A stretch of DNA of 57,244 bases from Anaerolineae bacterium. Its GTDB lineage: Bacteria; Chloroflexota; Anaerolineae; Anaerolineales; UBA11657. The position numbers and the translations under genes were made by a program. The stretch covers positions 1 through 57,244 of the forward strand of contig CAUZCX010000001.1 of NCBI GenBank assembly GCA_963578565.1. Reading direction: 5' to 3'. Shown here piece after piece: positions 686 to 53,990 of this stretch. A model generated the notes under the pieces. That model saw only the letters and a program-made list of their open reading frames with translations, ran no database searches and had not been told where the DNA came from. Positions within the stretch are counted from its first letter, which is position 1. Each line of letters starts with the position of its first letter.

Positions 686-1633
686 TTGGAGCCAGAATAC
701 GTCACTTTCTCGAATCTTATTATTGACGACATCGTCCTCTGGGATGGATCGACACATATGAGCGTGCTTGGTGGTTCAGGAACGCATGCCTTAATTGGCA
801 TGCGAGTGTGGTCCCGGTCTCTGGGTTTTGTGGCTTCCGTAGGGTGCGGCACAACCGAAAGTGTCTATAGACAACCTCTAGAGGCTCTGGGGTGTGTGGA
901 CTTAAGGGCTATTGTACGCCGTGAAAACTATCAGACGGCACGCGCATGGCAGCTTTTCGAGAAGGATGGTACGAGAACCGAGGTGATGCGCACTGACCCT
1001 GCGGAATTTTTGGATAATACCCCCCGTCATGAGGAGATGCCAGATGATTATCGCAATGCAAAGGGATTTCATGTTTTGTGGGGACGCGACTTGGATGAAT
1101 TGAGCAGTCTGCTGGCAAAACTACGCAAGGGTAATCCGACAACCTGCCTGTTGTGGGAACCATCCCCAGACCACGAGAGAGGTGCACCAGATCAGTATAT
1201 GGATATACTTAGGCAGGTCGATGTTTTCTCACCCGACATGCAACAAGCGACATCGATCACAGGGCTTGAAGATGTTGCCGAAATCGCGTCCGTATTTGCT
1301 CACTGGGGCGCTCGGAACATCGCTATCCGGATGGGTGATCAGGGATCCTACGTGGCAACACAGAATGGAAAAGTATGCCATATTCCGGCTGTGGCGAAAA
1401 AGATTGTGGATGTTACCGGAGCCGGTAATGCCTACTGCGGCGGTCTGCTTGTGGGCATTACAGAGGAACTAGATATCCAGGACGCGGCACTTCGCGCTGC
1501 CGTCAGCGCTAGTTTTGCGATGGAACAATTCGGGGTTCCAACATTTGGTGACGACCTGTTCGAGGAAGCAACAACGCGAATGAGTGGGTCGAGACAGAAA
1601 ATAGTGAAGGATGATTGGAGAAAGATAACCTGA
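686..1633 (+). CDS. PfkB-family sugar/nucleoside kinase
   Basis: PfkB C-terminal anion-hole motif VDVTGAGNAYCGGLL and an N-terminal GG region (VLGGSGTHALIG). The track start is TTG at 686, so the exact start is uncertain. Confidence 0.75.
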   Translation: MEPEYVTFSNLIIDDIVLWDGSTHMSVLGGSGTHALIGMRVWSRSLGFVASVGCGTTESVYRQPLEALGCVDLRAIVRRENYQTARAWQLFEKDGTRTEVMRTDPAEFLDNTPRHEEMPDDYRNAKGFHVLWGRDLDELSSLLAKLRKGNPTTCLLWEPSPDHERGAPDQYMDILRQVDVFSPDMQQATSITGLEDVAEIASVFAHWGARNIAIRMGDQGSYVATQNGKVCHIPAVAKKIVDVTGAGNAYCGGLLVGITEELDIQDAALRAAVSASFAMEQFGVPTFGDDLFEEATTRMSGSRQKIVKDDWRKIT

Positions 1634-1682
1634 CAATGGATAAGGTCGTCATCTCATCTGATCCAGATATCGCTAACATCTC

Positions 1683-2627
1683 ATGATACAGACCCGCAAC
1701 CTGACTAAAACATATCCAGAAGTAGAAGCTGTGAAGGACGTCACCCTGAACGTGCGTAAAGGTGAGGTATACGGTTTCTTGGGTCCTAACGGCGCTGGCA
1801 AGAGCACTACAATCGCAATGCTACTCGGTTTGGAGAAACCAACATCAGGTGAACTGTCGCTTTTCGGCTACCATCTTGACAGGAATTATTTTGATATTAA
1901 GAGTGCAATTGGCGTGGTTGGTGAACGACCATTCTTTTTTGATGAAATGACGGCATGGGAATTTCTGGAATTTCACGCAGATTTGTATATGGTTGAATCC
2001 AAAATCCATCGGATATGGCAACTGCTGGAGCATGTCGGTCTCAGCGACTATGCCCACATGCGTCCCAGTGATTACTCTCGGGGCATGCGGCAGAAGTTGA
2101 GCTTTGTCCGAGCGTTACTGCACAGTCCCGATTTACTTATATTGGACGAACCTGTATCAGGGCTGGATCCACATGGGATTAGACAAATCCGCGAATTGAT
2201 TGAAGAGCAGAAGAAAGCTGGCACAACCATCTTCATTTCATCGCATGTTTTATCTGAAATCGAACGTACTGCCGATCGCATTGCAATAATGCACAAAGGT
2301 AGGCTCCTAGTGGAGGACGATCTCGATGGACTCCGCTACAGCGTGGACCAATCAACTCACGTGCAAATTGAGGTCACGCGAATCCCGGACGCACTCTCTG
2401 ATGCGCTTTCTGCTGTGCCACATGTGAAGGAGTATTGCATACAAGGTCTGCAAATAGAAATCAGCCTTGATGGCACCGCAGACTACCGCGCTGAGGTTTC
2501 TTCGGTAATTACTGCGACCGGAACCACAATCATTGGTATGCAGACTAGAAAAGCTAGTTTAGAGGAAACGTTTATGACCTTCACGGATGAGAACGTGGTT
2601 GGAATTTCTCAAGCAGGCGAAACATGA
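1683..2627 (+). CDS. ABC transporter ATP-binding protein (ABC-2 type exporter)
   Basis: Walker A GPNGAGKST, signature-like YSRGMRQKL, Walker B LLILDEP, H-loop SSHVL. The stop overlaps the next start (ATGA at 2624-2627). Confidence 0.9.
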   Translation: MIQTRNLTKTYPEVEAVKDVTLNVRKGEVYGFLGPNGAGKSTTIAMLLGLEKPTSGELSLFGYHLDRNYFDIKSAIGVVGERPFFFDEMTAWEFLEFHADLYMVESKIHRIWQLLEHVGLSDYAHMRPSDYSRGMRQKLSFVRALLHSPDLLILDEPVSGLDPHGIRQIRELIEEQKKAGTTIFISSHVLSEIERTADRIAIMHKGRLLVEDDLDGLRYSVDQSTHVQIEVTRIPDALSDALSAVPHVKEYCIQGLQIEISLDGTADYRAEVSSVITATGTTIIGMQTRKASLEETFMTFTDENVVGISQAGET

Positions 2628-51462: not shown

Positions 51463-52731
51463 TTATGCGCTGATCACAACCTCGCCCGGCATCCACTGGC
51501 GCAGCACCTCTGGGATTACCACGCTTCCATCGGCCTGCTGGTAGTTCTCAAGTACGGCTATGAGTGTGCGAGGCAGGCCGAGGCCAGACCCGTTCAACGT
51601 GTGCACGAACGTCGGCTTGGCGCCTTTCTTTGGCCTGAACCGCGTGTTGGCGCGGCGTGCCTGGAAGTCACCACAATTGGATACCGAGGATACTTCCAAC
51701 CACTCATCGCAGCCTGGTGACCATGCCTCGATGTCGTAAGTGATGCGCGAACTGAATCCCAGATCCCCGCTGCATAGCTGACGTACGCGGTAGGGTAACC
51801 CGAGCTCCACGCAGGTCTGCTCCGCGTCGGCGACCAATTTGTGAAGCGCGTCTGATGATTGGTCTGGTCGGGTGAAGGCATACATCTCCACTTTGTCGAA
51901 CTGGTGCCCGCGCTTGATTCCGCGTACGTCCTTACCTGCGGCTACCTTCTCGCGGCGGAAGCACGGCGTGTATGCAGTGTAGTAGCGCGGTAGCTCGTCC
52001 GTGGATAGGATTTCATCTCGATGAAGATTTGTGAGCGGGACTTCCGCGGTCGTTACCAACCAGGCGTCATCCTCGGCGTCGTGGTAGATGTTGTCGGCGA
52101 ATTTGGGCAGTTGGCCGGCGGCTTCAAAGTTCACCTCTTTCACTATGAAAGGCAGATATCGCTCTGCATAACCCTGCCGCTCGTGCTGTGCCAGCATGAA
52201 ACTGATAAGCGCGCGCTGCAGGCGTGCACCGGCGCCATTGAGCACGTAAAACCTCGAACCGCTCAATTTAACTCCGCGCTCGAAATCGATGATTCCCAAT
52301 TCATAACCGATTTCCCAGTGTGGTTTTGGGTAGAAATCGAAATCTCGCCGTACTCCGACCTCGCGCATAGTCACATTGTGCTCATCACTCTCGCCGTGCG
52401 GCGTGCCAGGTTCCGGCATGTTAGGGATTTCCAGCATGAGGGCGCGGAGCCTATTTTCGACTGCGCGTACCTGCTCATCCAGGCTGGATATGCGGTCGCC
52501 GACGGCGCGCATTTCCGTGATGCGATTCTCTAGATCGGTGGCAGCCTTCATACGGCCGATTTCCTTGGAGACGCGATTGCGCTCAGATTTGAGCGTCTCG
52601 GTCTGTTGCAGCAGCTCACGTCGCTCAACGTCCAACGCCAGCACGTCCTCCAGGTTTGCCTCGGCATTACGCAGCGAGAGCGCGGCTCTCACTTGTTCTG
52701 GCTGTTGGCGGATGAAATTGATGTCAAGCAT
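51463..52731 (-). CDS. serS: Seryl-tRNA synthetase
   Basis: MLDINFIRQQPEQV, a coiled-coil arm, and class II motifs (FRRE...G, GSGLGLPRTLIAVLENYQ). ATG 52731 with a GGAG 8 nt upstream. Confidence 0.92.
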   Translation of the reverse strand: MLDINFIRQQPEQVRAALSLRNAEANLEDVLALDVERRELLQQTETLKSERNRVSKEIGRMKAATDLENRITEMRAVGDRISSLDEQVRAVENRLRALMLEIPNMPEPGTPHGESDEHNVTMREVGVRRDFDFYPKPHWEIGYELGIIDFERGVKLSGSRFYVLNGAGARLQRALISFMLAQHERQGYAERYLPFIVKEVNFEAAGQLPKFADNIYHDAEDDAWLVTTAEVPLTNLHRDEILSTDELPRYYTAYTPCFRREKVAAGKDVRGIKRGHQFDKVEMYAFTRPDQSSDALHKLVADAEQTCVELGLPYRVRQLCSGDLGFSSRITYDIEAWSPGCDEWLEVSSVSNCGDFQARRANTRFRPKKGAKPTFVHTLNGSGLGLPRTLIAVLENYQQADGSVVIPEVLRQWMPGEVVISA

Positions 52732-52734
52732 GGT

Positions 52735-52992
52735 AGTCTCCGCGTTGTAACAAGATACAAACAGCCCCGCATCCATGGTAGGACGGGGCCCCCCTCGTGG
52801 TTCCAGCTACCTTCGTTAGGCATAACCCCTGACCTCATTCAGGGTTAACGGGTGTTCCCAGCCGACCTTTCGGTGCCGGCTTTGCTGGAGTGGAACCGTC
52901 AGGACACCCCACTGTCTTGCAGCCACCGGCAGCTCTCTGCACGGGTGTTTCCGTGGCGATGGGTCTTCATTGGCCATTATGTGTTGTGAAGT
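52735..52992 (-). promoter_or_regulatory. Candidate T-box leader (tRNA-sensing riboswitch) of serS
   Basis: Read on the minus strand. AGAGAG bulge (complement of 52933-52938) inside an ACACCC/GGGGUGU helix. GNRA-capped hairpin at 52858-52888. Hairpin UAACCCUGA/UCAGGGgUUA at 52823-52847. T-box core AGC-UGGAACC-ACG (complement of 52794-52807) flanked by GGUAG/CUACC, the antiterminator geometry. A competing GCCCCG/CGGGGC hairpin (52764-52789) is followed by UGUUUGUAUCUUGUU, then the SD and ATG. Confidence 0.6.
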
Positions 52993-52998
52993 GGGATG

Positions 52999-53028
52999 AT
53001 TATAAGCGCGTCTTGGCTGCTTGTGCAA
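52999..53028 (-). promoter_or_regulatory. Candidate sigma-70-type promoter for the serS leader
   Basis: Minus strand TTGCAC (53023-53028), an 18-nt spacer, then TATAAT (52999-53004). Confidence 0.45.
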
Positions 53029-53087: not shown

Positions 53088-53912
53088 TCAGGACTCTTTG
53101 CGAAACTGTAGGCAGTAATGGTGAAAGGTATTACTTACCCATGCGCTACCCATCCCGTATGGCGCAAGGCGTTGATTATCCTGACACCAAATACGTTCGT
53201 CCTTTAACGCGAAGATCTTGCTGAGCTCTCGGGCAAGATCCCAGGCGAGTGGATAAATCCTGCCACCTTTCTTAATGTTTTTTACTATTATCGTAAGATA
53301 CGCATTTGCCTTCATCAGTGGGTGAAGAGATGTGTATATGTCACAGAGCTGTATAAGGAACTCGTCGTAATCCTGTATGTTGCCCAGATCGCGCTGGTCA
53401 TTAGAGTAAAAGACATCTAGATCCGCAGCGGCGCGACGATTCTTTTGTGTATTAGAGCCACGCATGTGCAGCATGTCCCAGTATGGAGGTGATGTGATGA
53501 CATAATCTATTGGGGGCAGCGATTGCCTGAAAGCGGTTCTACAGTCAGCATGGATGACCGAAGCCGAAACTCCTTTGGCGGCACAACCCAATGTGGCTTG
53601 TTCGGCTGCGACCACTTGCCGGGCTATGGCAGTGTATTTCTCGCTGAGCTCAATGCCTATACCGTTACGTCCACTGTGCAGGCACGCAACGAGAGTGCTG
53701 CCGGTTCCCGCCATTGGGTCGAGCACGATGTCTCCCGCCTTGGTGAAGAACTCTATGAAGCTTTGAACGAGCGTCTCCGGGAATTTTGCTGGATGACGGA
53801 TCACACCTTTCTTGCGCGGCGGTGGGTTGTGGATGAACCATGATTTCTGGAATTGCAGCCATGCCTTTGGGTTGAGTTCGTTGAGTCGGTTCCGGAATGG
53901 CTTTTTTCGCAT
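53088..53912 (-). CDS. DNA (N4-cytosine or N6-adenine) methyltransferase with motif order X-I...IV
   Basis: RHPAKFPETLV (motif X-like), VLDPMAGTGSTLVA (motif I), then about 60 aa later ITSPPYWDM (motif IV, SPPY). ATG 53912 is preferred; the track starts at GTG 53960. Confidence 0.8.
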   Translation of the reverse strand: MRKKPFRNRLNELNPKAWLQFQKSWFIHNPPPRKKGVIRHPAKFPETLVQSFIEFFTKAGDIVLDPMAGTGSTLVACLHSGRNGIGIELSEKYTAIARQVVAAEQATLGCAAKGVSASVIHADCRTAFRQSLPPIDYVITSPPYWDMLHMRGSNTQKNRRAAADLDVFYSNDQRDLGNIQDYDEFLIQLCDIYTSLHPLMKANAYLTIIVKNIKKGGRIYPLAWDLARELSKIFALKDERIWCQDNQRLAPYGMGSAWVSNTFHHYCLQFRKES

Positions 53913-53990
53913 GTTAGCGACGGTCTGGTTCAATATATGACCGTGGGAGGATTGTAGCACGGTTGCCGCGCCCGCGGCTATAATGTTGAG

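Follow-up and report, generated by a model that had tools for sequence, protein, structure and literature searches.

Does a T-box riboswitch control serS, the gene of seryl-tRNA synthetase (SerRS), in a small-genome marine Anaerolineales, and how would such a switch read tRNA-Ser when the variable base of its UGGN tetrad does not match the discriminator of that tRNA? The locus lies on contig CAUZCX010000001.1 of assembly GCA_963578565.1 (the window, i.e., the whole stretch of 57,244 nt that was analysed). The contig belongs to a metagenome-assembled genome of a marine Anaerolineales (1.63 Mb, 55% G+C, 152 contigs, 88% complete), referred to here as the source genome. From promoter to gene, serS is preceded on the minus strand by a leader of ~260 nt, in which an earlier note had proposed a T-box with an unexpected UGGA tetrad. 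Comparative sequence analysis indicates that this leader is a genuine transcriptional serine T-box, ordinary in kind, and that A52802, the N of its UGGN, reflects a real C-to-A substitution, derived and confined to this species. Three further genomes (G001, G002 and G003) belong to the same genus and five (L104-L108) to a sister genus, g2; both genera fall in family f1.

The serS leader as a T-box

At the Rfam curated threshold of the T-box family (RF00230, gathering score 93 bits), nothing is reported in the window. With permissive filters, the same model gives a full-length match to 52982-52776 (model positions 1-219, 31.9 bits), with an E value of 2e-5 in a 501-base search and of 1.6e-5 per genome. 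The covariance-model check that the earlier note had proposed does return a hit, better than chance would give but short of the gathering score. Since the score lies under the cut-off, T-box membership rests on homology and covariation. About 20 Chloroflexota serS loci, found via the SerRS protein, carry GG-UGG-C/U-ACC-ACGAG upstream of the gene. The serS leaders of 16 relatives were scored, and all are full-length RF00230 matches of 41-90 bits with E values down to 3e-18. The cut-off is strict in the Rfam copy used: none of the Chloroflexota T-box matches (0 of 4 + 16 + 12) attains 93 bits, the best having 90.0, and of the six control genomes with an RF00230 match only two pass this score. 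Standard annotation would overlook every one of these Chloroflexota matches. Among the non-Chloroflexota serS loci, including Firmicutes (among L024-L084), a pattern search found no upstream T-box core, and these loci contributed nothing to the tally of N.

We aligned 23 serS leaders (the source genome and 22 Chloroflexota relatives) with MAFFT and found them collinear. The pair count covered the distal helix of Stem I and the one under the AG bulge, Stem IIA, and both antiterminator helices (A1, A2). In these helices 90.5% of the cells are paired, compared with 31-56% when the partners are slid; both sides change at 12 pairs, and the covariation score was reached by none of 500 shuffles. MAFFT set the base of Stem I of the genus two columns off register relative to the other leaders. 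Consequently, the basal helix P1 and the specifier were extracted by anchors, and P1 was kept out of the formal pair count. The upstream half of the leader contains the following elements.

52887..52968, minus strand: Stem I by RF00230 alignment, with base helix P1 (GAAG 52968-52965 with CUCC 52890-52887)
52934..52938, minus strand: AG bulge AGAGA, aligned to the AGAGA of RF00230; its columns are (nearly) invariant in the 23-leader alignment
52911..52933, minus strand: distal helix GCUGCC/GACAGU, 6 bp, enclosing the 11-nt loop GGUGGCUGCAA (52927-52917)
52891..52894, minus strand: specifier UCC (Ser, 52894-52892) with purine A52891, from the Infernal specifier columns, in the context GGU-UCC-A
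52861..52880, minus strand: short Stem II-like hairpin GCCGGC-ACCGAAAG-GUCGGC, aligned to RF00230 Stem II, pairing by eye
52846..52860, minus strand: Stem IIA/B, UGGG-AACA-CCCG followed by UUA, with U.G in the source genome where all others have C-G
52816..52832, minus strand: Stem III, UCAGG...CCUAA with a C.A mismatch, by RF00230 alignment; pairing by eye, ambiguous

The specifier is UCC in 22 of the 23 leaders and UCU, a synonymous Ser-to-Ser change, in G003, so that a serine codon is conserved in every orthologue aligned, always 1 nt ahead of the 3' strand of P1. P1 covaries across the alignment (GGAG:CUCC, AAAG:CUUU, CAAG:CUUG, CGAG:CUCG), which fixes the register of the specifier; in the source genome it contains one A.C mismatch. 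A tRNA-Ser(GGA) gene is encoded in the source genome. The earlier note had left two UCC triplets as specifier candidates. The triplet in GGU-UCC-A is the conserved one, whereas the other, in GUGUCCUGA (~52906-52898), reads GAG-CCGGG or GAG-UCGGG in same-genus genomes and belongs to the 3' strand of upper Stem I; it was rejected.

The AG bulge that had been placed on the 5' side of a long helix is AGAGA at 52938-52934, one half of the predicted tRNA-elbow platform. In the distal helix above it, six of six pairs change on both sides and 99.2% of the cells are paired. The enclosed loop, conserved among relatives, had been taken for an apical loop of 15 nt and is in fact 11 nt long, closed by 6 bp; it looked larger because of a C.A mismatch that the source genome carries in the closing helix. 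The S-turn consensus AGUA/GAA is absent from the genus, which has CAUC/GGU instead, while order-level relatives keep it. Likewise, no G.A tandem of a K-turn could be placed by eye at the base of Stem I in the source genome, and Infernal deletes the K-turn columns in the leaders of the relatives. Reduced T-boxes without a K-turn or S-turn exist, both motifs being typical rather than universal, and their absence therefore does not exclude membership. Stem I, which the earlier note could not fold unambiguously, is a homologue of a canonical Anaerolineae Stem I that lost the S-turn consensus. The Stem II-like hairpin falls far short of the length that Stem II has in order-level relatives; the CGGG/CCCG helix of Stem IIA/B is 100% paired in 22 distinct rows, and Stem III forms a perfect 6-bp UCAGGC/GCCUGA helix in G003.

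The promoter, the expression platform and the gene itself comprise the elements below.

53023..53028, minus strand: -35 box TTGCAC, identified by sequence
52999..53004, minus strand: -10 box TATAAT, 18 nt from the -35 box; sigma-70-like promoter
52777..52811, minus strand: antiterminator, with helix A1 GGUAG/CUACC (52811-52807/52781-52777), a 7-nt bulge and helix A2 ACGAG/CCCGU
52799..52805, minus strand: T-box bulge UGGAACC, N = A52802, inside the core AGC-UGGAACC-ACG (52808-52796)
52764..52789, minus strand: terminator hairpin GCCCCGUCC-UACCAU-GGA(UG)CGGGGC, -16.5 kcal/mol for the hairpin alone
52749..52763, minus strand: U-rich tract UGUUUGUAUCUUGUU, directly after the terminator hairpin, imperfect and interrupted
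52738..52741, minus strand: Shine-Dalgarno sequence GGAG, >20 nt beyond the terminator
52731, minus strand: start codon ATG of serS
51463..52731, minus strand: serS, 422 aa (TIGR00414, 479 bits against a cut-off of 302)

These elements agree with what had been read from the letters alone, namely a TTGCAC-18-TATAAT promoter, an antiterminator built from GGUAG/CUACC and an ACG...CGU helix around a 7-nt bulge, and a GC-rich competing hairpin followed by a U-rich tract and then the Shine-Dalgarno sequence. The promoter is kept in same-genus genomes, including G001, where the T-box is lost. A promoter scan calls TGCACA-17-TATAAT (10 of 12 matches) as the sole promoter-like site in the region (1 against 0.4 expected). 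Judging from promoter spacing, transcription would start near 52992, and the T-box leader would thus span 52992-52749 in front of serS.

The full antiterminator string is GGUAG-C-UGGAACC-ACGAG...CCCGU-C-CUACC. Across the 23 leaders, both sides change in three of the five pairs of A1, and A2 is 96% paired. For the antiterminator, the canonical register has a predicted energy of -7.0 kcal/mol, and an alternative register one of -9.0 to -10.7 kcal/mol. The terminator and the antiterminator have 13 nt in common (52789-52777) and are mutually exclusive folds. The 56-nt 3' segment, comprising the terminator and a small downstream hairpin, has a minimum free energy of -20.4 kcal/mol, compared with -17 to -27 kcal/mol for the segment of the relatives. 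Similarly, the terminator-minus-antiterminator gap is -9.7 kcal/mol, and in 22 relatives it ranges from -4.8 to -17.3 kcal/mol. Substitutions at 52790, 52789 and 52786, found in the source genome only, move the terminator to a new register while its pairing is kept well. A simple terminator scan of the region did not pick up this terminator, with its bulged stem and imperfect U tract. Folding of the whole leader by minimum free energy was uninformative (z = -0.61), as expected of a two-state RNA. Because the Shine-Dalgarno sequence lies beyond the terminator, control is predicted to be transcriptional rather than translational.

By tblastn, the whole assembly (88% complete) contains a single serS locus; a second, unregulated copy that would make the leader dispensable was considered and, within this assembly, rejected. 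Upstream, the serS promoter is adjoined by a 290-aa open reading frame (53088-53960, minus strand) whose match to DNA adenine methyltransferases is limited to residues ~51-125. It scores 35-61 bits against these families, far under their cut-offs, and represents a methyltransferase in divergent or in truncated form.

A52802 and the discriminator of tRNA-Ser

All four tRNA-Ser genes of the source genome (CGA, UGA, GCU, GGA) and its tRNA-Sec gene have G73. A52802 therefore cannot pair with the discriminator of tRNA-Ser, and the conflict that the earlier note had anticipated from the usual bacterial tRNA-Ser is real in this genome. A tRNA-Ser or tRNA-Sec lacking G73, considered as a partner for UGGA, was rejected on the same five genes.

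Of the 22 relatives, 19 have C as the N of their leaders and three have U (L010, L011, L015); none has A, and N is C in all six of the closest leaders (G002, G003 and four metagenome contigs). We therefore find A52802 to be derived and species-specific. The Logan assembly of a single run, SRR9039920, encodes an identical SerRS and is identical over ~360 nt upstream, including UGGAACC; the exact SerRS protein occurs on 5 contigs. The A is thus no artefact of a single assembly. When metagenomes were scanned for the core with any base allowed at N, four additional leaders of the genus came up, each with UGGC, along with six unrelated chance matches, and no further copies of the A allele. In the same region, the source genome alone has a C in the otherwise invariant UCGUCC of the core.

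N matches base 73 in the other leaders of the source genome. The thrS leader combines an ACU specifier and UGGA with U73 of tRNA-Thr, the pheS leader a UUC specifier and N = U with A73 of tRNA-Phe, and the leuS leader N = U with A73 of tRNA-Leu. In its statement of the rule, the T-box database TBDB has N pairing with base 73 "in a majority of the cases", with the G.U wobble as the sole exception named there and His T-boxes exempt, and for Trp T-boxes it gives 46% with U facing G73 (PMC7778990). The pairing of N with base 73 is thus a covariation rule and not a criterion of the T-box family; it is in this feature that the leader departs from its 22 relatives. Nearest-neighbour energies make UGGA:GCCA ~2-3.6 kcal/mol weaker than the pairing of UGGC, and ~0.7-1.5 kcal/mol weaker than that of the wobble variant UGGU, which is natural in three relatives.

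T-box erosion and the state of the switch

The serS leader is not the only T-box of the source genome that departs from its orthologues. RF00230 scores of the four leaders are listed here for the source genome and for the same-genus genomes G002 and G003.

thrS: source genome 69 bits, G002 89, G003 87
pheS: source genome 43 bits, G002 87, G003 71
leuS: source genome 24 bits, G002 not assigned, G003 85.5
serS: source genome 32 bits, G002 49, G003 64

The core of the pheS leader (L002, G000:C21, ~1524-1536, minus strand) reads CAGAA-UUGUAAU-ACGGG, compared with CAGGG-UGGUACC-GCGGG in G002 and UGGUAUC in G003. It thereby places a U opposite C75 of the tRNA, turns the GGG of A1 into GAA, and accumulates five or six substitutions across 13-14 of the most conserved bases, while its terminator is identical to that of the relatives. 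In the leuS leader (L004, G000:C48, ~1500-1740, minus strand), CAAGA-UGGUGCC and an AG bulge AAAGAA stand against CAGGG-UGGUACC and AGAGA in G003. The thrS leader has the only intact set of T-box motifs among the four. The consensus is thus degraded in three of the four leaders of the source genome, and A52802 belongs to an AT-biased erosion that affects T-box motifs across the lineage.

We note that a tRNA-Val(GAC) gene (L001 1749-1822, minus strand; G000:C12:25099-25174) lies 17 nt upstream of the thrS T-box match on the same strand, so that the thrS leader may be co-transcribed with it or may lack a promoter of its own. We also note in G002 and G003 a fifth T-box (G002:C118, G002:C278, G003:C100; 74-81 bits) that has no counterpart among the four of the source genome; its counterpart there may lie in the unassembled 12%.

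Beyond the source genome, T-boxes number five each in G002 and G003, near-canonical in both, against four in the source genome, three of them damaged in the acceptor-binding core or the elbow platform with terminators intact, and one clear match in G001. The 330 nt that precede serS in G001 (L103, G001:C1) contain neither an RF00230 match at E<=1 nor UGGNACC, and they lack a terminator. The serS promoter of G001 is nearly unchanged and its leader, collinear over ~260 nt, is 58% identical, about the neutral level; it looks like the remnant of a dead T-box. The five sister-genus genomes likewise have no T-box match upstream of serS, even at E<=1, and in g2 an AT-rich region of ~130-150 nt before serS adjoins a divergent gene. 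The serS T-box is therefore ancestral in Anaerolineae and was lost at least once, probably twice, in this family of 1.5-2.6 Mb genomes. A stepwise erosion and loss of T-boxes in small-genome marine Anaerolineales, running from G002 and G003 over the source genome and G001 to the sister genus, is one conceivable course of events, which we propose tentatively and with some doubt.

Against this background, we consider it fairly probable that the serS leader of the source genome is still a tRNA-Ser-responsive class I T-box, with weakened acceptor binding. Transcription would initiate at the TTGCAC/TATAAT promoter, and the anticodon of tRNA-Ser(GGA) would meet UCC (52894-52892) in Stem I, while the AGAGA bulge and the distal loop would hold the elbow of this tRNA. 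The 3' end of uncharged tRNA could then pair with the UGGA bulge and stabilise the antiterminator (52811-52777), allowing read-through into serS; with charged tRNA, the terminator (52789-52764) would form instead. The transcription of serS would in this way be coupled to the charging level of tRNA-Ser. Weaker acceptor binding would be expected to lower the gain or to shift the set point of the switch.

That the leader has been constrained follows from its identity within the genus, ~80%, compared with 55-60% at four-fold degenerate sites of serS. Of 35 changes specific to the source genome, 27 fall outside the assigned helices and eight within the 80 helix positions; five of these eight keep the pair, a count that leans towards kept pairs since the helices were assigned partly on the source genome's own sequence. 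At otherwise invariant columns, the source genome makes 4 unique departures, the same number as L017 and one more than L043 (3); three of the 4 are the terminator substitutions at 52790, 52789 and 52786.

Several observations weigh against a working switch. The RF00230 score of 31.9 bits is half that of the serS leader of G003 (64) and well below 93. The only unpaired cell of the distal helix (C52929.A52915) and the sole A.C cell of A2 (pair 340/350, A52795.C52786) both come from the source genome, whose Stem III is weak as well. The extension of P1 has lost two pairs that the genus keeps (GAUGGAG/UUCCAUC), the changes responsible being 52971 G>A and 52885 U>G as placed by eye. The pheS and leuS cores of the same genome are damaged even more than that of serS, and the loss of the serS T-box in close relatives shows that the element is dispensable in this group. 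In the 1994 work of Grundy, Rollins and Henkin on Bacillus subtilis tyrS, a mismatch at this position reportedly cuts induction strongly unless the discriminator is matched.

The strongest rival is a decaying T-box whose antiterminator is no longer effectively stabilised by tRNA-Ser. serS would then be expressed by a tRNA-independent leak past a terminator with a poor, interrupted U tract, and A52802 would count among several AT-biased, unselected hits preceding the complete loss that G001 and the sister genus display. In the source genome, each of the four T-box leaders scores under its orthologues, the damaged motifs of pheS (UUGUAAU) and leuS (UGGUGCC, AAAGAA) stand out against same-genus genomes, and the changes specific to the source genome in the serS leader run 17 GC>AT to 7 AT>GC, five of them breaking pairs in Stem I and A2 as judged by eye. 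The missing RF00230 match before serS in G001 and in five sister-genus genomes, and the G001 promoter that still stands in front of a leader at about the neutral level of identity, also favour this rival. However, the leader of the source genome is conserved far above neutral sites, and most of its changes lie outside helices or preserve pairs. Its specifier is intact, as are the AG bulge, the distal loop and, within the core, UGG and ACC, and its terminator has been retained by coordinated changes with an energy inside the family range. A strong terminator that could not be opened, set before a single essential gene, should be selected against, and in G001 the dead T-box went together with loss of the terminator. 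We regard decay as possible but rather unlikely, as regards both the failing switch and the reading of A52802 as an unselected hit. The strong terminator before the sole serS, the intact platform and specifier, and the joint loss in G001 lead us to judge a working switch likelier than a relic.

Two further explanations concern A52802 itself. It might be neither true nor fixed, through an assembly or consensus error or as a minority allele in a mostly-C population, a concern that arises from the fragmented metagenomic origin of the sequence and from the confinement of A to the source species. This is very improbable given that the independently built Logan assembly carries the same A, that the exact SerRS protein is found on several contigs, and that 34 further species-specific differences in the same leader make the base no isolated oddity. 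Still less credible, to the point of being nearly negligible, is a switch of partner, in which UGGA would serve a tRNA with U73, for instance tRNA-Thr, recognised through an ACU (52891-52889) right after UCC. All three tRNA-Thr genes do have U73, the thrS leader of the source genome does combine ACU with UGGA, and ACU adjoins the Ser specifier here. However, the covarying 3' strand of P1, CUCC, begins with the C and U of this ACU, which are hence paired rather than presented. UCC-ACU also occurs in L090 and L092, there with UGGC, and the alternative specifier frames that TBDB describes in its account of them are only -1, 0 and +1, not +3 (PMC7778990). Control of serS by threonine tRNA would also be without physiological rationale. 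We thus retain the reading of a tRNA-Ser-responsive T-box with weakened acceptor binding. The comparison of sequences establishes that the leader is a T-box, its specifier, its alternative helices, the mismatch and the derived state of A52802, while continued function and the effect of the mismatch are what we infer.

Known T-boxes and implications of the serS leader

Class I T-boxes (RF00230; e.g., B. subtilis tyrS and glyQS, and serS of Firmicutes) present the same order of Stem I (with its specifier loop, AG bulge and distal loop), Stem II, Stem IIA/B and Stem III. They share with the leader the 7-nt UGGNACC bulge, a terminator that excludes the antiterminator, a position ahead of an aminoacyl-tRNA synthetase gene, and a specifier whose last base is C and whose 3' neighbour is a purine. 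The leader differs from them in its score of only 31.9 bits, in having CAUC...GGU for the S-turn AGUA...GAA, no convincing K-turn and a short Stem II, in being GC-rich with a poor U tract, and in its A opposite G73. T-boxes upstream of serS are conserved across Firmicutes, and T-boxes have been reported in Chloroflexi (Wels et al. 2008, PMC2494555).

The serS leaders of other Anaerolineae and Chloroflexota (L006-L023, L043) are direct, collinear homologues with the same UCC specifier and platform and the same GG-UGG-N-ACC-ACGAG...UCGUCC core, all of them under the Rfam cut-off (41-90 bits). Unlike the source leader, these relatives have an AAGUA/GAAA S-turn, longer Stems II and III, C or U as N, and fully paired distal and A2 helices. 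Trp T-boxes with U opposite G73 likewise have a weakened fourth acceptor pair (Marchand et al. 2020, PMC7778990). The G.U wobble of these is still a pair, whereas A.G73 in the source leader is a purine-purine mismatch, which is not among the exceptions in the TBDB text on this rule. The translational ileS T-boxes of Actinobacteria (Sherwood, Grundy and Henkin 2015) likewise come from GC-rich genomes outside Firmicutes and have a reduced Stem I. They hide the Shine-Dalgarno sequence, whereas that of serS lies past the terminator, and the source leader has a full-length Stem I with an elbow platform.

For annotation, the leader matters in two ways. At the gathering score of 93 bits, the standard model misses it together with all Chloroflexota serS T-boxes scored, and too few cases of regulated synthetase genes are consequently called in this phylum. 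The leader is also a clean natural exception to the rule relating N to base 73, which serves to predict the tRNA that a T-box reads: specifier, gene and tRNA set say Ser and G73, but N points to U73. Its tRNA could be mis-assigned by tools in which the discriminator match carries weight.

For the biology of these switches, the meaning depends on whether they work. If the leader is still functional, it offers a natural test case for the contribution of the fourth acceptor pair. If the switches of the source genome work in general, full UGGN:NCCA pairing is not required for natural antitermination, and a purine-purine mismatch at position 73, and in pheS even a U opposite C75, would be tolerated. 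The established model of T-box action is unchanged under either outcome. If the leader is non-functional, the genus would present a graded series from which to learn how riboswitches before essential genes are dismantled in the course of genome reduction, and which of sensor and terminator is lost earlier.

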